A stretch of DNA of 64,000 bases. It comes from a virus. Taxonomy: Duplodnaviria; Caudoviricetes. The DNA is taken from positions 3,431-67,430 of IMG/VR virus record IMGVR_UViG_3300026549_000080; one strand, 5' to 3'. Shown piece after piece: positions 3,001 to 62,803 of the stretch (the first letter of the stretch is position 1; each line of letters opens with the position of its first letter). Both the position numbers and the translations under genes were made by a program. The notes under the pieces are model-generated. The model worked only from the letters and a program-made list of their open reading frames with translations, was not told the DNA's origin and did not search any database.

Positions 3001-4027
3001 ATTCTGAATTATAAAAAGTTTTTAAATAAGGTATTTCATTTATATAATGTTCTTTCACCCAATTATTCGTTGTTATATTTTTCCAATTTAATCTCGGAAT
3101 ATTCAGTGGTTTCATTAATGTGAAATCTTTACATTTGTTTTTAATTTCAATTATATTCTGATAGGCTTTTTGAAGAACTTCTTCACCAAGTTCTCCCTCC
3201 ATATAACTTCTAATTTCTTCGTCACTCATTTGATAAGTCGTTGCATAAAAATCATCAACTTCTCTATCACCTTGTTGTGCATTAAGAAAAGCCTTATGAA
3301 TTGGTCTATCTTCTTTTTTCAAATAATGCGAATCAGTTGTAATTATATATTTAATTCCAAGCTCTTCGCCAAGTTCAACCAATTTATTATTTACATAAAT
3401 TTGTTCTTTATTCTTCGATGGTTGCATCTCAAAATAGAAATCTTCTTTGCCGAAGATTTCTTGCATTTGATATATCCATTTTTTAATTAAATCCATCGAA
3501 GGCGCGCCAGTTTCTTTGTTACGAAGAAGTTGAGTTGGAAGACACCCGCCAAGACAAGCTGTACTTCCAATTACATGACCTGGATTTGCACCAATTATAT
3601 CTACTAAATCTTGATAATATGTTGGTACTCTACGCATCCTGCGCGCCACCCAACTCCGCATCCAAGCACGAGTTGAGATTTCACGAATTTGTTTGTGTCC
3701 GATGCCATCTTTGGCAATAAGAATGAAATGAAAGTATCTATCAACTTCCTTATTAAAATTGTCATTTGTAAGTCCGTTACGAACTAAATAAATTTCATTA
3801 CCAAAAAGAACCTTAAAGTTAGGGTTATCTTTTTTAATTTTGTTGTAATACTTTTCTGCTCTAACCGCACTAGCTATTGTGTCATGTTCGGTAATTGCTA
3901 CTACTTCATGTCCAAGTTCAATTGAATAGTCAATAAGTGATTCTACAGTATTAATACTATCGCGCAAACGAAAGTTGCTGAAATCAGTATGACAATGCAG
4001 TGAACCAGGGTATTTGATTTTATCCAT
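29..4027 (-). CDS. dnaE: DNA polymerase III alpha subunit (phage DnaE, family C)
   Basis: N-terminal PHP domain (SLHCHTDFS, AITEH, TTDSHY), GRGSGVG motif, catalytic LDVDIDIE, GIHAGGV, C-terminal OB fold; no intein signature seen. Confidence 0.95.
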   Translation of the reverse strand: MDKIKYPGSLHCHTDFSNFRLRDSINTVESLIDYSIELGHEVVAITEHDTIASAVRAEKYYNKIKKDNPNFKVLFGNEIYLVRNGLTNDNFNKEVDRYFHFILIAKDGIGHKQIREISTRAWMRSWVARRMRRVPTYYQDLVDIIGANPGHVIGSTACLGGCLPTQLLRNKETGAPSMDLIKKWIYQMQEIFGKEDFYFEMQPSKNKEQIYVNNKLVELGEELGIKYIITTDSHYLKKEDRPIHKAFLNAQQGDREVDDFYATTYQMSDEEIRSYMEGELGEEVLQKAYQNIIEIKNKCKDFTLMKPLNIPRLNWKNITTNNWVKEHYINEIPYLKTFYNSEYEEDKRLADIIVDRIEKDKTLQNKETYDEINACLEDTWVSSEVNGSRWSAYFLNLQNIIDACWDAGTLVGCGRGSGVGFILLYLLGITQINPLREKSQTKRWRFLNPERVSVLDVDIDIEGGRRADVLKSFRNIYGEDRVANVLTLKTEKAKSAIQTACRGLGIDNDIAAYLSAFVQADRGQQRSLAQTFYGDEENGFGPSTQFRIEMEENYPEVWRVAQGIEGLINGCGIHAGGVIFVDEPFTESTALMRAPKGEIITQFDLHDAEDTGLIKYDILSVEALDKIHNCIDLICKYGYETEEPTLKETYEKIVGIYNLERDSQEMWSMCWNHKVMSLFQMEKQSGISGIAAMKPTSVDDLAILNSAIRLMATEKGGEMPVNKLARFKAHPSDWDYELQKYGLGADAKEILEPVLNVSYGLCIAQEQFMQLVQLPELGGFDLTWADKLRKSIAKKNPAEYEKLTEEYFKVIKEKGLNERLCTYVWNVLIAMSKGYGFNLSHTLAYSLIGLQELNLAFRYPTILWDCACLISDSGGNEREEHFSNEDTNRNDDGTTFDDVSMGVFEDGVGVELEETDNSGSTKTRKVSKINYGKIATAIGKMKYEGISIVSTDINKSEYTFAPDVDNNRIIYGLSGITGVGDDLVRQIMDNRPYESIEDFISKIKVKKPQMVNLVKSGAFDSLYNGNRIEAMNVYIDLITDKKKRMTLQNMQMLINFGFIPEEYDFQCKVYNFNKYIKKNKIDNYYGIDDIALNFYNEHFDMDLLKPSTDSQDGMFYLIKQTDWDKIYKKQMDIIRPFIKENNQELLDKVNNKLRQDLWDKYCLGNLSRWEMDSISCYIHDHELKNLKNGAYGLSNYSELPEEPVVNYEFKSKETGQKVPLFKICRIAGTVLDKDKNKKMVTLLTNDSVVTVKIFGDAFTHYDRQISEKRPDGTKKVIEKSWLSRGNKIIVTGIKRDSNFIAKKYKNTPYHLVELITSIDNNGYIQTMKERME

Positions 4028-4050
4028 TCACATTACCTCTTTCTTTTATT

Positions 4051-4087
4051 CTATATATATTATATCAAAGTTTTATTAATTTATCAA
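4051..4087 (-). promoter_or_regulatory. sigma70/sigmaA-type promoter upstream of dnaE
   Basis: Minus strand TTGATA-17 nt-TATAAT followed by ATATATAG; coordinates approximate. Confidence 0.7.
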
Positions 4088-4089
4088 TT

Positions 4090-4527
4090 TTAAGATAACG
4101 TTTTTGAAAATGGCATATCTAACTCAAAATCACTATCGGTATATTTATACGGTTTAGAATTAGCAGTAATATAAATATTAATTCCGCAATACCAACCGCC
4201 CTCACCTATAATTGATGTTACGATTTCAGACTCGTCGCCTTCATAAAAAGTTTTCCACGAACTTCTGTCAGTATCATTTTTGTTTTCTCCAATCCATCCA
4301 CTGATATAAATTTCATTATTAACATAAATACCCCAACACCTACCTCCAATAGCAATCTTTGGATTACCGAAATCTCCTAAATGACCAAAAGAATATTCGT
4401 AGCTATATTCTTTTATTTCTTTTAAAACATCTTTAAGCGTGTTGCCATATTTTCCAAAGGTTATTTCATAATTATAACTATAGCCTCCGCATATTTCATT
4501 ATGTCCACCTTTTTCAATTATTTTCAT
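4090..4527 (-). CDS. hypothetical protein
   Basis: 145-aa ORF with SD, co-oriented with neighbours. Confidence 0.7.
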   Translation of the reverse strand: MKIIEKGGHNEICGGYSYNYEITFGKYGNTLKDVLKEIKEYSYEYSFGHLGDFGNPKIAIGGRCWGIYVNNEIYISGWIGENKNDTDRSSWKTFYEGDESEIVTSIIGEGGWYCGINIYITANSKPYKYTDSDFELDMPFSKTLS

Positions 4528-5078: not shown

Positions 5079-5123
5079 TTAAAATCCTAAGCTCCCATCT
5101 TCAATTTGATAGTTGGTAATAAT
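5079..5123 (-). pseudogene. displaced duplicate of the recJ 3' end (IITNYQIEDGSLGF*)
   Basis: Aligns with RecJ C-terminus FISDYEIKDNTLGF*; both copies end in the identical GGATTTTAAAATGAA. Confidence 0.75.
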
Positions 5124-5965
5124 TATTCTTTCCATCTCCAGTAATAACCCCCAACTTTTCGCCATGGTTCTTCGCAGGCTAATTTTAAACGATTTGTATT
5201 ATTAGGATTTTTTCCTATACTACGAAGAGCATCTGCCATAGTATTAAACTGATTAACTATTTCCTTATTATTATTTAACTGAATCACTCCTCTACGGCAT
5301 CTTTCAGAAGAACTAATAATTGGTATATTATGAAAATGTAATATAGTTTTTATTGACTCTCTGCTTTTATGATAATCCTTAGCTAACTGTCTAATAGATA
5401 CACCATTTTTATATAGATCAACTATTTTCAACGCCTCAGCAGTATAAAATTTTTTCTCTCTATGTTGTTTTCTTTGCTTTCTTAATTGCTGCGCTTCTAG
5501 ATTCTTATCGGGGTAATCTAAGAACTCCCAAGTTAATTTAATACCATTTAATTCTCCACAAGTATCCCATTCACCTTTTAAATAATGAGATAAGTTAGAA
5601 TTATCAACTTTTCCATATGCTGCCGCTTCATTTATACTATCAAAAATTTCTTGCGTTGTTAAACAAATAATTCTTTTTGATTCTACGGTCCCATAAGGCG
5701 AAACATTGTATCCGTTTTCAATACTATTATATTTTTGAATTAAATCGGCCTCTATTTGCAAGGCCGTATCTTTATCTAAATCTGTATATAATATTTTATG
5801 TTCAAAATTGTCCCACCCATATTTTTGAATGGCATGATAAAATTTAGGCTGCAATTCATAGCCTTTACCATTAATTCCCCAACGATTTTCACATTTTTGA
5901 GAAGTGATACCAATATAAGACTTACCATTAATTAAATTGGTGTGTTTATATACATTATAACCCAT
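5123..5965 (-). CDS. free-standing GIY-YIG homing endonuclease with NUMOD1-like/HTH DNA-binding repeats
   Basis: N-terminal YNVYKHTNLINGKSYIGITS...RW, E..LI..YNSIENGYN; C-terminal F.TMADA.R and GYYWRW. Confidence 0.85.
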   Translation of the reverse strand: MGYNVYKHTNLINGKSYIGITSQKCENRWGINGKGYELQPKFYHAIQKYGWDNFEHKILYTDLDKDTALQIEADLIQKYNSIENGYNVSPYGTVESKRIICLTTQEIFDSINEAAAYGKVDNSNLSHYLKGEWDTCGELNGIKLTWEFLDYPDKNLEAQQLRKQRKQHREKKFYTAEALKIVDLYKNGVSIRQLAKDYHKSRESIKTILHFHNIPIISSSERCRRGVIQLNNNKEIVNQFNTMADALRSIGKNPNNTNRLKLACEEPWRKVGGYYWRWKE

Positions 5966-6047
5966 TGCGATTTCTCCTTTTCTTTGTTCTAATTATAAGT
6001 AGAAATCCAACCCATTCACTTCATAAAATAAGTCCAATCCATTCATT

Positions 6048-56133: not shown

Positions 56134-56203
56134 ATTTTGAACCTTTTTTATAAAGTTCGAAGTTAGAAAAACTACTTTATATTAGAAAATGGAGGTTCAA
56201 AAT
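56134..56203 (+). promoter_or_regulatory. RBS-sequestering hairpin enclosing putative late promoter of the HNH gene
   Basis: ATTTTGAACCT (56134-56144) pairs with AGGTTCAAAAT (56193-56203), covering SD and start; CTACTTTATATTAG lies between the arms. Confidence 0.7.
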
Positions 56204-56870
56204 GAGTAAAGAATGTGCTTACTGTGGAAAATTATTAACAACAGAACAAAGACATAATACCTATTGCTCTCAAAAGTGTGCCAATGCTGCCAAGAAAAAG
56301 AAGAAAATTGATGCTTGGCTTTCTGGAGAATTTAGCGGGAGTAAAAGTGGTGGTCAACTATCTGTTACAATTCGTAATTATCTTTTAGAAAAAGCAGGAT
56401 ATAAGTGTGAGCTGTGTGGATGGCACGAAATAAATCCTACAACTAATAAAGTGCCTTTAGAAATTCATCATATTGATGGAGATTATGAAAATAATCGACC
56501 CGAAAATTTACAGGTTCTTTGCCCTAATTGTCATTCTTTAACGCCGAATTTTAAAGCGTTGAATACGTCGGAAAGACAAAGAACACAGGTAAGAAAAGAT
56601 AAAAAAGAATATTATTGTGTTGATTGTGGGAAACCAATTAGTAAAGGGTCGACAAGATGTCAACAATGTGAAGCAAAGCATCGTATTACAGAAAAACCAT
56701 ATAGTAGAGAAGAATTAAAACAACTAATTAGAACTACTCCTTTTACAACTATAGGTAAACAAGTTGGAGTTACAGATAATGCTATAAGAAAATGGTGTAT
56801 TCAATATAATTTACCTAGTAAAGTGCGCGATATTAAACAATATAGCGACGAAGAATGGGAAAAAATTTAA
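56202..56870 (+). CDS. HNH homing endonuclease with Zn ribbons and HTH
   Basis: CELCG, LEIHHIDGDYENN..ENLQVLCPNCH, CVDCG, VTDNAIRKW. Confidence 0.88.
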   Translation: MSKECAYCGKLLTTEQRHNTYCSQKCANAAKKKKKIDAWLSGEFSGSKSGGQLSVTIRNYLLEKAGYKCELCGWHEINPTTNKVPLEIHHIDGDYENNRPENLQVLCPNCHSLTPNFKALNTSERQRTQVRKDKKEYYCVDCGKPISKGSTRCQQCEAKHRITEKPYSREELKQLIRTTPFTTIGKQVGVTDNAIRKWCIQYNLPSKVRDIKQYSDEEWEKI

Positions 56871-56873
56871 AAT

Positions 56874-56948
56874 GGTCTCATAGTTTAATCAGTAAAACCG
56901 GCGACTTGTAATCGTCAGACCTCAGAGCATAACTGAGTGAGACCTCCA
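56874..56948 (+). tRNA. trnT: tRNA-Thr(UGU), variant elbow
   Basis: Loop CTTGTAA; T-loop AGCATAA; CCA. Confidence 0.87.
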
Positions 56949-57015: not shown

Positions 57016-57105
57016 GGAGGGTTGGCAGAGTTTGGCTGATTGCGACGGTCTTGAAAACCGTTGAGTGTAATAGCTCCGTGGGTTCAAATCCCACACCCTC
57101 TTCCA
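57016..57105 (+). tRNA. trnS: tRNA-Ser(UGA)
   Basis: Long variable arm, loop CTTGAAA, CCA. Confidence 0.92.
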
Positions 57106-57148
57106 CTGGATATAGCTCAGCTTGGTAGAGCGCTTGATTTGGGTTCAA
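57106..57148 (+). pseudogene. truncated tRNA-Pro(UGG), 5' half only
   Basis: CTGGATA-TAGCTCAGCTTGGTAGAGC-CTTGA-TTTGGGT-TCAA; no acceptor 3' strand. Confidence 0.75.
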
Positions 57149-57167
57149 TCCCAAGAAAAATTATTGA

Positions 57168-57320
57168 CCAATTTTATATAGTCTCTAATTTAAAATTACT
57201 TATAATTAGAGATAAGTGGGCGTAGGGGAAGAGGGACCCCGCCAGTTTTGGGAACTGGACATTACTGCGTCTTCGAGTGGCGTCGCCCGCACCATGAATA
57301 AAGAGACTATATAAAATTGG
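57168..57320. repeat. perfect 19-bp inverted repeat flanking a tRNA-Pro
   Basis: CCAATTTTATATAGTCTCT (57168-57186) / AGAGACTATATAAAATTGG (57302-57320). Confidence 0.9.
57216..57294 (+). tRNA. trnP: divergent tRNA-Pro(UGG)
   Basis: GTGGGCG/CGCCCGC acceptor, CCAGT-TTTGGGA-ACTGG, TTCGAGT loop, ACCA. Confidence 0.8.
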
Positions 57321-57328
57321 AGGAAGAT

Positions 57329-57409
57329 ATGGGAAAAGCATTAACAAGAGAAGAAGTTATTCGACGATTAAATAAAACATTTATACAAAAAGTTGAATTT
57401 TTAGAATAA
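57329..57409 (+). pseudogene. 26-aa ORF stub (MGKALTREEVIRRLNKTFIQKVEFLE), possible endonuclease remnant
   Basis: Strong GGAGG SD but premature stop; N-terminus resembles phage homing-endonuclease-type starts (inference). Confidence 0.35.
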
Positions 57410-57413
57410 TTAT

Positions 57414-57490
57414 GGACTATTAGCTCAGTTGGTTAGAGCATCCGGCTCATAACCGGCAGGTCGTAGGTTCAAGTCCTACATGGTCCACCA
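57414..57490 (+). tRNA. trnI: tRNA(CAU), Ile2-type
   Basis: Loop CTCATAA; body closely resembles Firmicute lysidine tRNA-Ile2 (GGAC..TAGCTCAGTTGGTTAGAGCA...GGTCCACCA). Confidence 0.8.
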
Positions 57491-57494
57491 ATAT

Positions 57495-57571
57495 GCCCGC
57501 GTAGCCGAATTGGCACAGGCTGCTGACTTAGACTCAGTGTATTGGAGGTTCGAGTCCTCTCGCGGGTACCA
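57495..57571 (+). tRNA. trnL: tRNA-Leu(UAG) with short variable loop
   Basis: Loop CTTAGAC, Leu-type D loop, A73, CCA; variable region only GTATT. Confidence 0.82.
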
Positions 57572-57628
57572 ATTACTCATGCCTTTTAAAAAGGCGTGAG
57601 TTATTTGCATATATAATAGGAGGTAAGT

Positions 57629-58789
57629 ATGAAAAGAATTTATTTAAAACTGGTAATGATATTATTTATATTTGCTTTTAGTTTTTCTTTTAGCTCGGCC
57701 GCATCAGACGTACAATTAAAAGATTACAATACAATACCAACTATTACAGCTGGAAATTCATATGTAATTTTTGGTCTTATCGAATCTAAAAATAAAATGA
57801 GTCGAGTTGAGGTCGGCGCAGTAGACGTAAAAACAAATAAATGGGTTATTAAGTATGATAAGAAAATTAATACAGATAATTTTAGTCTTTCTAAAGCAGA
57901 CCCATATGTAAAATTTGGAACTTTAAAAGCGGGAAATTATAAGTATCGTATTTATGCTCACTCAAAAGGAAAGGTATATACTTTATTAAATCAATCCTTT
58001 ACTGTAAGGCCAAAACCAATTCAATTTAAAACTGTTAAGGAACAACAAGAATTTCTTAATAGAGTAAATGAGGGAGTATATACTGGAAAGCTTGTTATTG
58101 ATGGGAAGAAAGGACCCAAAACAGTCGCAGCTATAAAAATTTTCCAGCAAGTTGAAGGATTAACAGTAGATGGAAAATGGGGCAAAGCCACAGAAGCAGC
58201 TTCAGATAAGACAATTAATGTAACTGGAAAGCGTAAAGCTATTAATTGGGCTTGTAGTGTTGCTAATGATAATTCTTTTGCTTATGGAACTGGGCAAAGA
58301 GCGCATAGAAGCGGTTGTTATTTTTGTAAAACAAATACTGGCGATAGAAAATGGAAGAAAGAAAAGAAAGGTGAGCCGCATAAAGTAAATGGGCATACTT
58401 ATACTAAAACATATTGTTGCAATCCTTTTATAACAGCTGCTTATGCTCATGGCGCCAAAGATGCAAAACTTTATAATATATGTCATGCTGGTGCCAGCTG
58501 TGGGATGACCGCAGGTGATTGGAAAAAAAGTCCATATTTTAAAACTCTTGGCAAATGTAAAAATGTTTCTTTTAACCAGTTAAAGGCGGGAGATGTTATT
58601 CTTTCTAATAGTCCAGGTGGAGCAAAGTGGCATCATGTTTGGATGTATATTGGACATAATAGATATGTAGAAGCCTCTGGTGGAAAATGGGATTCTAATT
58701 CTATTGCTGTAAAAGAAAATGCAAAGAAGAATTATAATAATAATTATGCAAAATATAATGGCACTACTGTAATAAGATACAGTAAATAA
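57629..58789 (+). CDS. exported peptidoglycan hydrolase (signal peptide + PG-binding + NlpC/P60-like)
   Basis: Sec-type signal, IDGKKGPKT..A/VDGKWGKAT repeats, YCCNPFITAAY Cys, HHVWMYIG His. Confidence 0.7.
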   Translation: MKRIYLKLVMILFIFAFSFSFSSAASDVQLKDYNTIPTITAGNSYVIFGLIESKNKMSRVEVGAVDVKTNKWVIKYDKKINTDNFSLSKADPYVKFGTLKAGNYKYRIYAHSKGKVYTLLNQSFTVRPKPIQFKTVKEQQEFLNRVNEGVYTGKLVIDGKKGPKTVAAIKIFQQVEGLTVDGKWGKATEAASDKTINVTGKRKAINWACSVANDNSFAYGTGQRAHRSGCYFCKTNTGDRKWKKEKKGEPHKVNGHTYTKTYCCNPFITAAYAHGAKDAKLYNICHAGASCGMTAGDWKKSPYFKTLGKCKNVSFNQLKAGDVILSNSPGGAKWHHVWMYIGHNRYVEASGGKWDSNSIAVKENAKKNYNNNYAKYNGTTVIRYSK

Positions 58790-58906
58790 ACGGTGTTTCG
58801 CAGCCTTTAAATGCGAAGTTTATATATATCTGTGACGGTTCTGACAGAATAAAAACTGACCGAAGCATGAGACGTCGCGCCAGCGTCGGTAAATAAATGG
58901 CGTCAT

Positions 58907-58974
58907 GTCTTTGTAGTGTAATGGAAACACACCTAAGTAGTTAGGAGACGGTAGTTCGAATCTATCCAAAGGCA
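58907..58974 (+). ncRNA. tRNA-like RNA with 4-nt loop replacing the anticodon loop
   Basis: Acceptor GTCTTTG/CAAAGGC, D arm, CCTAA-GTAG-TTAGG, T arm GGTAG-TTCGAAT-CTATC; no CCA. Confidence 0.7.
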
Positions 58975-59037
58975 ACTAAAATTTGCTTTTATTAAAAATT
59001 TCTTATATACTATATATAGAAATAAGGGAGAGAAAAA

Positions 59038-59394
59038 GTGAGAAGATATTTAATTTATGCTTGTGATGATTACTTTGACGGTTATCATGGAATGGATCGT
59101 ATAGCGATTGAAGAGTGCCAAGATTTAGATGAAGCCTGTGCTTTGGGAGAGTCTTATTCTATCGAAGTTATAGAGTCTTATCCAGATATTTATGATATAA
59201 TGAAAGATAGATTGGACGAACTTATTTCAAATGGTTATTCTAATGAAGAGGAGCTATGGGACGAAGTAATTCAAGATGATATTAAATATGAGGTGACAGA
59301 AATTAATGAAGACAAAGCTGGTTTTTACTTAACTGATGAACTTGAAGAAATGGCAATAAATGATTATGGAAATTTTTATAAAAAATTTACTTAA
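59038..59394 (+). CDS. acidic hypothetical protein
   Basis: 118 aa, GTG start, own promoter. Confidence 0.6.
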   Translation: MRRYLIYACDDYFDGYHGMDRIAIEECQDLDEACALGESYSIEVIESYPDIYDIMKDRLDELISNGYSNEEELWDEVIQDDIKYEVTEINEDKAGFYLTDELEEMAINDYGNFYKKFT

Positions 59395-59770
59395 TGGGTG
59401 ACTCTGGAACCGAGTTGATTGGACTCCTAAAGCAAAAACATCCAAAGACGTCTAATGCGGGGTCGGCGCGTAGTAAATGATCCCACCACCCAGCTCGTAG
59501 TTAGTGTTGCGCTGAAAGGCTGTGGGGAACTCCAGGGAAACTCCCTGCAAGAAGGGTTGAGCCTTTACTCAATTGAGTAGTCAGTAACCTGTAAGACTTT
59601 AAAAAACAGAAGTGCGCGAGGTAATATACCCACAAATAAACAAATGGAAATTCCGCGCAAAGGTTTAAACTAAGGTTGGTAGATTACCGAAATCTCTACT
59701 GCTTTGTAAGATGGCACGCAGAAATTTTACACTCGTAAGTGGGGTAGTTATATGACTACCCCTGGTACCA
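59395..59770 (+). ncRNA. unassigned large structured ncRNA candidate (~375 nt)
   Basis: No ORF; stems TGGGTG/CACCCA, CAGGGA/TCCCTG, GCGCG/CGCGC, GGGGTAGTT/GACTACCCC; ends ACCA. Confidence 0.55.
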
Positions 59771-59909
59771 AAAAATTTGCAATATTTTTAAAATATTGAT
59801 ATAATATATATAGAAAGTGAGAGAGAAGTTCCGCAATCGGCGAGGTTTATTACACCGTACTATGACGGGAAACGCACCAAAGAGTAGTTAAATATCATAG
59901 TATTGACGA

Positions 59910-59982
59910 CGCAGGATGATGCAGTGGTCAGCAGCGGATGCTCATAACTTCCGAGTCGGTGGTTCGAATCCACCTCCTGCAA
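59910..59982 (+). tRNA. trnM: tRNA-Met(CAU), initiator-like acceptor, no encoded CCA
   Basis: C1:A72 mismatch, G2-C71, C3-G70, loop CTCATAA, TTCGAAT T-loop; A73 abuts ribozyme. Confidence 0.82.
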
Positions 59983-60039
59983 GAGATACGATAGTTACTA
60001 CCTCCACGTGGTGTATCTTGGATAATGCTAAAAGTAACT
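59983..60039 (+). ncRNA. tRNA-associated HDV-like theta ribozyme
   Basis: P1 GAGATAC/GTATCTT, P2 AGTTACT/AGTAACT, P3 ACC/GGT, L3 TCCACGT, P1.1 CC/GG, J4/2 GCTAAA; G1 directly after tRNA N73. Confidence 0.88.
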
Positions 60040-60065
60040 TAAGTGATAATATGATAGATAAGTAG

Positions 60066-60132
60066 GCCGCAGTAGCTTAATCGGTAAAGCGTCCTGGAAA
60101 CGGGGAGATGTGGTTCGAGTCCAACGGTGGCT
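60066..60132 (+). ncRNA. degenerate tRNA-like RNA with GAAA tetraloop in place of anticodon loop
   Basis: TAGCTTAATCGGTAAAGC D arm, TCCTG-GAAA-CGGGG, TTCGAGT T-loop; imperfect stems; no CCA. Confidence 0.55.
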
Positions 60133-60254
60133 GAAAGTTTATCTAAGTTATCACGATGGAATGTCGCAGAGTAAACTGCGACCTCGCCGCGAAGGAGAAT
60201 CAGAGCTAAATCAACTTTTGGTAGTAATGTGGTTTAACTACTTATTATACCAAC

Positions 60255-60790
60255 TGACCCATATAAATCCTGAATTGACAGGATAACATGCACACAGAAG
60301 ATGTGCGGAGACGCGAAGCGAAAGTGAGCGTACTCGTCTCGTGAGCGACGTAATGCTATGGGTGAGGCTTGTGTAGCCAACAAGTTAGCAAATACACAAC
60401 TTTTGATAAAGATTCTTATGTACCTCTCATAGCAGCATGTGCAGCTGAAGTATCCAATATAAGAGTCGAACATAATCTATAACAATCCAACATAAGTAGT
60501 TCCGGAACAATGCTTATGAGATCGCCGCCTGACGCAACAGGTCGCGCCTCTGAAATGGACGGGCGTGATACAACAATACTCACCGTGGATTGATCACCAC
60601 AATAATTTCGGAAATGTAGAGAATGGATCCGTGGAACGAGCGAGAAGTTATAGACCAATAAATTGCTCTTACCATTGAGGGCAAATCAATGGCGCGAAGG
60701 TTCCTGCGTAAATGAACCCCTCTGGCATACTGGTTTGTATGCTAACCTGTAAACTATGGGCGGGAGATTAGATTCTCTTACCCATAGGTG
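60255..60790 (+). ncRNA. unassigned large structured ncRNA candidate (~530 nt)
   Basis: Follows putative late promoter; stems ATCCTG/CAGGAT, GAGACG/CGTCTC, CATAAGTA/TGCTTATG, CCATTGA/TCAATGG, GCATAC/GTATGC, CTATGGG/CCCATAG. Confidence 0.55.
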
Positions 60791-60795
60791 TCTAT

Positions 60796-60870
60796 GGTCC
60801 TATGGTCAAGTGGTTAAGATGCTGCCTTTTCATGGCGGCGACCTGGGTTCGACTCCCGGTAGGACTACCA
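60796..60870 (+). tRNA. trnE: tRNA-Glu(UUC)
   Basis: Loop TTTTCAT, TTCGACT T-loop, ACCA. Confidence 0.9.
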
Positions 60871-60957
60871 TTTACCAGTGTCATGGTACACCTCCTTTTG
60901 ATAGGTCGCCATAGGTTGGTTTTGACTTATGGCGATCGCTTTATATTTTGTTAGATT

Positions 60958-61071
60958 GACGTGGGGTTCTGGTTTAAGCGAGTTCGACTCTCGCGACCCT
61001 GTGATTGTTATCCGCTTTATGGATAATGAAGTCTAACCACTTAAAGTCGTCAGGCCGTTAGGCAGGGCGTC
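60958..61071 (+). ncRNA. small structured RNA containing an isolated tRNA T-arm
   Basis: GCGAG-TTCGACT-CTCGC flanked by GGGTT/GACCC, then TTATCC/GGATAA and GTCTAAC/GTTAGGC stems. Confidence 0.4.
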
Positions 61072-61165
61072 TTTATTTTAATAAATTTTTAATGACCAGT
61101 AATTTTTTTTCTACTTATAATTAGTAGTTAATTTTAAAATATTATTTAAAATACTTGGAGGAAAT

Positions 61166-62803
61166 ATGAGTAGTTTTTATCCACACAATAAGCCGCCAGA
61201 ATTTGCTTATACAACAAAATTTTTGACAGTTGGTAATGATTGGAAAGGCGCTTCATATTCTAATACTGTATATCCAGGACTTTATTCTCCAAAGGGAGAT
61301 ATGGTTGCAAATAAAGCTTTAACTAATTTAGAAACTCTTTTAAATAGTGCTCGTGCCGCGGAGTTAAATTTTTTAAGTGCAACTGGAATTAATTTAGAAA
61401 ATCCTAATGCTAGTAATATTTTTAGAAATATAAATAAAATATTTAATTCTAAAGAAACCTTTGAAAGAGGACTGAAATACATGGAAGAGTTAAATAAAAT
61501 AGGAAGAATTAAAGATGAGAAAACACATACTTATAGAGATGTAAGTAGTTTTTTTGAAACCTATTTAAATCAAGAATTATTAAAATTAGATGGAAGAAAA
61601 ATAGTACATATGACTCCAGAGCAAATTAAACAACAGATTAATGATATTATTGGTAATGCTTTGATTAGAACCTATGAACAGGTTCAAGATTTTGTTGATA
61701 AACAAGGTAATAGACGTTTAATGATGGGAGATAGTGGGGTCGGTAAAGCTGCACCTAATATAAGTACTGGTGAGCACGCAGAACAAGCGGTTACTGATAT
61801 GATAAAAGTTATTAAAGAGTTACAATCAACCGGAGCTTTTGGAGACTACGGTTATTTATTTGATATTGGCGGGAGAGATTTGTTAAATCAGGTTAAAAAC
61901 TTAAAAAAACAAAAAAGAAATGCAAAAAGAAGAAAAACTAAAGGCTCGCCAGGCAAATATAAAGAGGCGAATGTAACAAGTAATTATCAAGGAAATATCT
62001 TAGAATTAATAACTACTTTAGCTGCGTCACATATTGGAAATATTAATATAAATAATAGTGGTTTAACTATTAAAGGTGTCCATACTGGACAAATGAATCA
62101 AATGAAAGCTGATTCAATATTATTGGTGGGAAGAGGTAATATTGACATAAATAAATATTTTAAAGATTATATTTCAGATACTCAAGGTACTGATTATACA
62201 TCTGTAAGAGCACAAAATGTATATGCTATAAAAAATTTTTTAGATAGATTGGGTGATAATATAGAGCATGTAATTATGGTAAGTGATAAAAATCTGAGTA
62301 TTACAGCTAATTTTAAGGGGGCTGAAGCCCAACGAGAAGTAAAACTTAGAGATATTGGACAGATGTTAGGCGAGTTTGGAGTTAATGCTTCTACTAATTT
62401 AATTAATTATCTTGCTAATTGTGGGCCAAGTATGGTTCAGGGAGAGTGCAATAGCGAAATAAAAACTATGTTACAAACTATGATTGGATATTTTTTGTTC
62501 GATCATTTAGAAATTAATATTGGAGTTAAAGCATCTGGACCAAATGTAGTAAATTTATTAAATATAAGTGGTATATATATGCCACTATCTGTATATTTAG
62601 AGGGATTATTAAAAAGTATTAAAGAAGCAACAAGCAACCCATCTAGCTTTGTTAATGTTACTATTCACCTAAGTGGTCCTACTTCTGCTGATCCAAATTG
62701 GACTGAAGAGGTATGGGAGGATTTTAGAGAACAGCGAGAAGTAGATTCTTATTTATCGTATAAAATAGTAAAAGATATAGCTAGTTTTATTTCCAGTTTA
62801 TAA
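61166..62803 (+). CDS. hypothetical protein (545 aa), late-promoter driven
   Basis: CTACTTATAATTAG upstream; no recognisable motif; followed by terminator. Confidence 0.65.
   Translation: MSSFYPHNKPPEFAYTTKFLTVGNDWKGASYSNTVYPGLYSPKGDMVANKALTNLETLLNSARAAELNFLSATGINLENPNASNIFRNINKIFNSKETFERGLKYMEELNKIGRIKDEKTHTYRDVSSFFETYLNQELLKLDGRKIVHMTPEQIKQQINDIIGNALIRTYEQVQDFVDKQGNRRLMMGDSGVGKAAPNISTGEHAEQAVTDMIKVIKELQSTGAFGDYGYLFDIGGRDLLNQVKNLKKQKRNAKRRKTKGSPGKYKEANVTSNYQGNILELITTLAASHIGNININNSGLTIKGVHTGQMNQMKADSILLVGRGNIDINKYFKDYISDTQGTDYTSVRAQNVYAIKNFLDRLGDNIEHVIMVSDKNLSITANFKGAEAQREVKLRDIGQMLGEFGVNASTNLINYLANCGPSMVQGECNSEIKTMLQTMIGYFLFDHLEINIGVKASGPNVVNLLNISGIYMPLSVYLEGLLKSIKEATSNPSSFVNVTIHLSGPTSADPNWTEEVWEDFREQREVDSYLSYKIVKDIASFISSL

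Follow-up and report, generated by a model that had tools for sequence, protein, structure and literature searches.

The DNA analysed here (the window) is a 64-kb stretch out of a 67.4-kb IMG/VR viral contig, with a G+C content of 34% and a dense tRNA array at 55.2–60.9 kb. In this array, directly 3' of a tRNA-Ser(UGA) gene (57016–57105), the following elements are arranged on the plus strand: 1) a 5' fragment of a resident tRNA-Pro(UGG) gene, nt 1 to about 42–43 (57106–57148); 2) a junction hairpin (57139–57154), in which CCCAA (57150–57154) is the reverse complement of the anticodon-loop sequence TTGGG (57139–57143); 3) the left arm of an inverted repeat (57168–57186), which forms the anti-RBS strand and lies 5' of an internal motif; 4) this promoter-like motif (57196–57209), one mismatch from CTACTTATAATTAG; 5) a second, cassette-borne variant tRNA-Pro(UGG) gene of 79 nt (57216–57294); 6) the right arm of the repeat (57302–57320); and 7) a stub ORF of 26 codons (57329–57409, ATG at 57329), preceded by the SD sequence GGAGG (57319–57323) and corresponding to the N-terminus of an HNH homing-endonuclease ORF. 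A tRNA-Met gene starts at 57414, 3' of the stub. Every element listed by an earlier note on this DNA was found in place or no more than one base away.

Several other features of the array are worth recording. A tRNA-Thr(UGU) gene with the T loop AGCATAA (56874–56945; Rfam 49 bits) starts 3 nt past the stop codon of an HNH gene (56202–56870) and was missed by ARAGORN, which also did not call the tRNA-like Rfam matches at 58907–58974 (50.7 bits) and 60066–60132 (31.8 bits). A weak HDV-type ribozyme match in Rfam (59983–60048; 25.9 bits, below threshold) lies directly 3' of the tRNA-Met gene at 59910–59982.

The 5' fragment of the resident tRNA-Pro keeps the acceptor 5' strand, the D arm, the anticodon stem and the UGG loop (anticodon at 57140–57142), and then breaks off within the 3' anticodon-stem strand, of whose 5 nt 4 remain. 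The region 57106–57182 scored 27 bits with Rfam against a threshold of 29, and this score needs cassette sequence as a false T arm. Parsing of the sequence confirmed the proposal that the resident gene survives only as a 5' half.

Between the arms of the repeat, a divergent but intact tRNA-Pro(UGG) had been proposed, and here the ARAGORN call, tRNA-Pro(tgg), and a manual parse agree on a fully folded molecule, the sole tRNA-Pro found by ARAGORN in the window. It has an 8-nt variable loop, the T loop TTCGAGT, the pairs C53–G61 and G1–C72, A73 and an encoded CCA. With the Rfam model RF00005, no match was obtained to this gene in the window (E ≤ 10) or to its counterparts in the related loci L011, L013 and L016 (E ≤ 0.1). 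Since the family is missed by this standard model, phage tRNA counts may be too low.

Ten members of the variant family were aligned (alignment A2: the window, L011, L012, L013, L014, L016, L017, L082, L083 and L084). All 210 of 210 cells of the cloverleaf were paired, compensatory changes occurred in 14 of the 21 pairs, none of 500 shuffles matched this result, and no slid register of the alignment came near the real pairing. Invariant positions were T8, A14, G18, G19, A21, T33, the TGG anticodon, G37, the T-loop TTC (54–56), A58 and A73. The UGG anticodon in a 7-nt loop, A73 with CCA (encoded in 9 of the 10 members) and the covarying cloverleaf are those of a class I tRNA. A non-decoding tRNA-like element was considered and rejected on the grounds of the full cloverleaf covariation, the invariant tertiary bases, UGG and A73.

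The unusual features are not all shared to the same extent. The variable loop is 8 nt across the family (7 nt in L017), and the reversed C53–G61 pair is present in 9 of the 10 members, L084 having the normal G53–C61. The G1–C72 pair, which had been put forward as a divergent trait, is indeed present in the window but is otherwise found only in L011, the closest relative, the other 8 members having C1–G72. C1–G72 is the pair normally used by bacterial ProRS; as the window copy lacks this identity pair and has G1–C72 instead, its charging is uncertain. The variant tRNA-Pro was also observed in three large phage contigs (L082:6700–6775(−), L083:8594–8669 and L084:608–683), in which no nuclease, inverted repeat or tRNA fragments were found near it. 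The existence of the variant tRNA without the nuclease means that its odd features need not have arisen as immunity to the nuclease.

A relative of the window segment 57096–57399 was identified in L011 (the same contig as L004), with 84% nucleotide identity overall and 97%, 95% and 87% in the tRNA, left arm and stub, respectively. Near 57399 the homology of the stub to the full-length gene stops, and both the body of the nuclease and the 3' fragment of the tRNA are deleted from the window. The full-length ORF (L004:2182–2772, 196 aa) matches Pfam HNH (E 2e-07) and PHROG HNH families, and its N-terminal part contains a CapR-homology domain and a zinc ribbon. Cassettes with a full-length nuclease ORF, for which the earlier note had proposed to look, are thus present in L011 (the 196-aa HNH protein) and also in L012–L015. 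As the HNH catalytic domain is missing from the 26 codons of the window and present in the full-length relative, the window copy is a remnant.

The fold search with the L004 nuclease matched DNA-cutting HNH domains only, and weakly, and in PDB, searched by sequence and by fold, the similarity was limited to generic HNH and zinc-ribbon matches. In metagenomes, 409 homologues of the protein were found, whereas tblastn against 50,697 deposited phage genomes gave no match. Sixty-seven viral nuclease loci were fetched and 39 of them were placed in a quick maximum-likelihood tree. In this tree, a clade of 19 HNH genes (SH-aLRT 97) consisted entirely of genes adjoining tRNA-Pro(UGG) (11 genes) or tRNA-Ala(UGC) (8 genes), whereas 15 of the 20 more distant HNH genes were without an adjacent tRNA. 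Outside the cassette, the genomes of L011 and the window share at most about 60–62% amino acid identity (tblastx), and one gene common to the L011 contig and the window sits 16 kb away in the window. Set against the 84% nucleotide identity of the cassette (97% in the tRNA), this indicates horizontal spread between distant phages.

Sister nucleases beside tRNA-Ala(UGC) were observed in L022, L023, L025–L029 and L041 (upstream of an HNH match at 2501); these tRNA-Ala genes are 78–79 nt long with unusual D arms, and G3–U70 is kept at least in L025. In L033, a tRNA-Pro 5' fragment (about 2525–2556) has its anticodon loop running into GGAGG, the apparent SD of the nuclease. A complete tRNA-Pro lies 3' rather than 5' of the nuclease in L033 (about 3076–3149) and in L018–L020. 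In-frame stop codons were seen in cassette nucleases, TAG in L017, L019, L020, L030 and L033 and TGA in L021, and the L016 nuclease has one in-frame TAG at a conserved Trp. The in-frame stops fall at conserved Gln or Trp, and the same phages carry suppressor-type tRNAs, which places the element in stop-codon-recoded phages as well.

The extent of the element can be read from pairs of occupied and empty sites. L089 is the empty-site allele of L016: positions 2168–2333 and 3073–3217 of L016 match L089 at 95% and 94%, both have tRNA-Asp and tRNA-Gln in the flanks, and L089, a record in which no homologue of the HNH nuclease was found, has one intact tRNA-Pro between them. In L016, 116 nt of the L089 sequence are replaced by a 739-nt cassette, whose left junction follows nt 42 of the tRNA. 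Similarly, L090, L091 and L092 are empty-site alleles of L013, being collinear with it, matching its flanks at 89–96% and retaining an intact tRNA-Pro; compared with L091 and L092, the 768-nt cassette of L013 replaces 8–12 nt comprising the variable loop and the 5' strand of the T stem. Across the pairs, the cassette is positioned after tRNA nt 42–45 and replaces 8–116 nt. Two independent lineages therefore show presence/absence polymorphism in which the empty site retains a conserved target, and the intact resident tRNA-Pro without a cassette, another check proposed earlier, exists in relatives of both L016 and L013. For the lineage of the window itself, no empty-site allele was found in viral contigs or in a metagenome scan; an exact pattern from the window 5' fragment had no match in viral contigs, no relative was found of the endolysin-like protein beside the window cassette, and blastn of the window against deposited phages gave generic tRNA matches only.

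Two further observations concern the neighbourhood of these sites. In the 135-kb metagenome contig L088 (592–925), the same tRNA-Ser(UGA) is followed within about 235 nt by a homologue of window ORF 61166; as this homologue comes after tRNA-Ser, L088 was rejected as an empty-site allele, and its arrangement indicates that about 4 kb of the window (57106–61165, containing the cassette, several tRNAs and the endolysin-like gene) is variable among relatives. In L013, a ROOL RNA (3466–4113; Rfam 271 bits) lies about 360 nt 3' of the cassette.

In the window, L011, L012, L013, L016, L017, L019 and L033, the cassette is preceded by the 5' fragment of a resident tRNA-Pro gene, the resident genes being different. 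The resident tRNA is broken at the same position in the window and in L016, and the 42 nt kept in L016 are identical to the first 42 nt of the intact L089 tRNA-Pro. Of the 3' anticodon-stem strand, 4 nt precede the break in the window, L012 and L016, and 5 nt in L013. The T arm of the resident tRNA, together with its acceptor 3' strand and CCA, is found right at the nuclease stop codon in L011 and L013, which indicates that the resident gene was split, not tandem-duplicated. A tandem duplication, in which one of two adjacent tRNA-Pro genes decayed beside an unrelated nuclease gene, would agree with the frequent occurrence of duplicates in phage tRNA arrays and with the variant tRNA standing alone in L082–L084, but it does not account for the 3' end of the broken tRNA beyond the nuclease, for the single intact gene of empty-site relatives exactly at the cassette place, or for the same junction (nt 42–45) in the window, L012, L013 and L016 despite differing resident tRNAs. 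On the strength of the first two of these points tandem duplication was rejected as very improbable.

Group I introns occur in bacterial tRNA anticodon loops, and the possibility was considered that the intervening sequence is spliced out and the resident tRNA-Pro is still functional. The site in or next to the anticodon arm and the endonuclease ORF inside the insert are as expected of an intron, and the junction hairpin, pairing "exon" bases with the first inserted bases, is somewhat P1-like. However, this hairpin has no U–G pair at the possible splice site, only about 100 nt are left outside the ORF and the tRNA, and no Rfam intron or ribozyme match was obtained for the window segment or for the L011, L013 and L016 cassettes. 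Moreover, the occupied sites lack 8–116 nt of the resident tRNA, so that the ends cannot join into a tRNA, and an intron is highly unlikely.

The junction hairpin formed by the first cassette bases and the resident anticodon loop recurs in L011, L012, L016 and L019, including perfect palindromes of 18 nt in L011 (about 1988–2005) and 17 nt in L019 (about 2411–2427). It could be an insertion scar or a means of folding away the orphan tRNA half. Fold-back priming as the source of the palindrome was rejected because the expected sequence was mismatched. The L016 junction has, in addition, a CCTGG that pairs with the 5' end of the tRNA, with a T run after it.

The inverted repeat of the window (57168–57186/57302–57320) has 19-nt arms that are 100% complementary and separated by 115 nt, in agreement with the perfect 19-bp repeat around the motif and tRNA-Pro that had been noticed at first. 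In the minimum-free-energy fold of 57106–57345, the cloverleaf is enclosed in the 19-bp stem, which is extended by CCCA:UGGGA over the AUG; the junction CCCA(A) is thus able to pair alternatively with UGGGA at the nuclease start codon. The right arm had been described as overlapping the GGAGG SD of the 26-aa stub. There is an overlap, but it comprises only the first two of the five SD bases, and for the AUG the only cover is the weaker extension CCCA:UGGGA. Cover is full in L012, L013, L014 and L016, where the SD and AUG themselves make up the right arm. The window arm duplex with its extensions has a predicted energy of -32.2 kcal/mol, compared with -15.1 ± 2.6 in 300 shuffles, none of which matched it. 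The arm-to-RBS duplexes of L011, L012, L013, L014 and L016 have values of -29.8, -26.7, -23.7, -20.7 and -28.7 kcal/mol, respectively, and the six duplexes have z values of -5 to -7, with 0 of 300 shuffles matching in each case. The arms vary in sequence among the cassettes yet stay complementary, with 15 G–U pairs, and one compensatory change across the arms distinguishes the window from L011.

Perfect 19-bp, terminal-looking repeats around a 115-bp cargo are reminiscent of a small MITE-like DNA transposon carrying a tRNA. Against this, the arms differ among cassettes while complementarity is kept, the 15 G–U pairs would be mismatched in the opposite strand, the position of the arms is that of the RBS, and there is no target-site duplication. 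As the element defined by the empty sites ends outside the arms and includes the nuclease, the transposon explanation was rejected and we regard it as extremely improbable.

The promoter-like motif that had been reported between the arms was found there, at 57196–57209. Exact copies of the 14-mer CTACTTATAATTAG occur at 5989–6002(−) and 61111–61124(+), the cassette copy having one mismatch, and 6 matches with at most 2 mismatches were found in the window against 1.66 expected, a number reached by 0 of 100 shuffles. The motif lies 25–45 nt upstream of a GIY-YIG gene (5123–5965(−)) and of ORF 61166–62803, and in L011, L014, L016 and L017 it is conserved in front of either the variant tRNA or the nuclease. 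As ORF 61166 has no Pfam or PHROGs match, the motif cannot be called "late", the term used in the earlier note.

Hiding of the RBS by the repeat, with a promoter motif between the arms, had also been proposed. The predicted pairing is found in six cassettes, and the same layout appears to be reused at other nuclease genes of the window: at the HNH gene 56202–56870, a motif variant lies inside an 11-bp SD/AUG hairpin (56134–56204), and at the GIY-YIG gene 5123–5965(−), the motif lies between arms pairing with the start region (5966–6010(−)). The window cassette likewise has the geometry of a putative promoter inside a hairpin. In L017, the variant tRNA is outside the hairpin. A promoter-inside-hairpin layout over the SD and AUG was observed in the tRNA-Ala-linked L023 as well.

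That the 19-bp stem is perfect in the window though the nuclease is gone implies either that the deletion is recent or that the stem has another role, e.g. in tRNA processing. It may therefore be asked whether the stem mainly serves the tRNA (e.g. RNase III-type processing), with silencing of the nuclease a side effect or absent, and whether the odd tRNA shape reflects escape from host tRNA-cutting defences and not from the nuclease. Besides the persistence of the stem after nuclease loss, the occurrence of the variant tRNA without a nuclease speaks for this possibility, and host defences cutting tRNA variable loops, together with SegB-linked phage counter-measures, are documented (PMC13096335). 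On the other hand, in L012, L013, L014 and L016 the left arm tracks the sequence of a right arm that is the SD and AUG, short tRNA-less versions of the hairpin are present at other nuclease genes of the window, and in L017 the tRNA is not enclosed; we consider a stem serving mainly the tRNA to be unlikely.

Taken as a whole, the features of the metagenomic sequences make it very probable that the window locus is a decayed free-standing HNH homing-endonuclease cassette that inserts in tRNA-Pro(UGG) and carries a replacement tRNA-Pro. The intact cassette, of about 740–770 nt, consists of the left arm, the internal motif, the variant tRNA-Pro, the right arm over the RBS/start and the 196-aa HNH ORF. 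Its insertion after nt 42–45 destroys the resident tRNA-Pro, and proline decoding would be maintained by the carried tRNA. The nuclease is envisaged to cut cassette-free tRNA-Pro genes near the junction of the anticodon stem and the variable loop, and repair off a cassette-bearing genome would copy the cassette into the cut tRNA-Pro. The carried tRNA may escape cutting because it differs at the cut place, with its 8-nt variable loop and reversed 53–61 pair. The part of the tRNA lost from occupied sites is also that in which the carried tRNA is most unusual, which fits resistance to cutting but does not prove it. On transcripts that read through from the tRNA array upstream, pairing of the left arm with the nuclease start would silence its translation, whereas transcripts from the internal motif would lack the left arm and express both the tRNA and the nuclease. 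In the window, a deletion has removed nuclease codons 25–196 and the 3' tRNA fragment, and the remaining tRNA, stem and 26-codon stub represent the degeneration stage of the homing-endonuclease life cycle. The earlier proposal of a mobile endonuclease that targeted tRNA-Pro and later decayed is supported by the occupied/empty pairs, the full-length ORFs, the split tRNA and the stub; that it "brought its own tRNA" needs the caveat that the same tRNA type occurs without a nuclease in L082–L084.

The closest described system is SegB of T4/T6, a free-standing GIY-YIG homing endonuclease encoded in a tRNA gene cluster, which targets tRNA genes, its recognition site being part of these genes (a T-arm motif), shows presence/absence polymorphism among relatives with co-inheritance of neighbouring tRNA genes, and has a predicted hairpin burying its SD and start codon (PMC2330249; PMC13096335). 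Both systems therefore comprise a selfish nuclease gene in a phage tRNA array with presence/absence polymorphism and a start-site hairpin. However, the cassette nuclease belongs to the HNH family, with zinc-ribbon and CapR-like N-terminal domains, and has no sequence relation to the GIY-YIG protein SegB. In addition, SegB lies between tRNA genes with no isotype preference (PMC13096335), whereas the cassette clade is tied to tRNA-Pro(UGG) or tRNA-Ala(UGC), and the cassette is located within the gene that it targets, destroying this gene and bringing another copy of atypical form.

It is known that hairpins can occlude the start sites of homing-nuclease genes (PMC2330249), and two published accounts (PMC2330249; PMC3014915) describe hairpin translational control with a promoter between the arms for T4 late and homing-nuclease genes (I-TevI etc.). 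As in T4, an upstream strand of the cassette is predicted to pair with the SD/AUG, and a promoter past that strand would give translatable transcripts. The cassette differs in that its 115-nt loop holds a whole tRNA gene, so that this internal promoter would drive expression of the replacement tRNA as well. Moreover, tRNA processing would cut between the arms, and as the stem outlasts the nuclease, a role in tRNA maturation is possible.

Homing endonucleases can also split a gene, as in nrdA of Aeromonas phage Aeh1. In T4, SegF with gene 56 and SegG with gene 32 are homing endonucleases beside a cleavage-immune target allele, as cited in PMC2330249. The cassette resembles these systems in that the nuclease is linked to a presumably uncut version of the target and that insertion can break the gene, but the broken gene would be rescued by a complete extra copy and not by cooperating pieces, in a manner similar to engineered "cleave and rescue" drives. 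Our literature search found no description of an element that destroys its tRNA target while carrying a structurally distinct substitute.

A more far-reaching proposal, that all these parts (cutting, immunity, shared promoter, hairpin and tRNA-Ala sisters) jointly constitute a natural cleave-and-rescue drive of tRNA genes, is offered tentatively, its joint truth seeming to us possible though not probable. According to this proposal, ordinary tRNA-Pro would be cut at the variable-loop region, and the expanded variable loop and reversed 53–61 pair would be the immunity determinants. A single internal promoter would drive both the rescue tRNA and the nuclease, with the tRNA-spanning stem silencing read-through from the array, the conserved anti-anticodon hairpin would neutralise the orphan tRNA half, and the sister clades would act likewise on tRNA-Ala.

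If the cassette model holds, the element would be a natural counterpart to engineered cleave-and-rescue drives, and would explain the spread of atypical tRNA genes among distantly related phages and account for the tRNA half-genes in phage arrays. To this picture the window contributes a decayed stage in the life cycle of the element, together with a clear example of a putative regulatory stem that spans a whole tRNA gene. Should the cleave-and-rescue proposal also be true, such elements would generally drive the turnover of tRNA genes in large phages of the gut and rumen.
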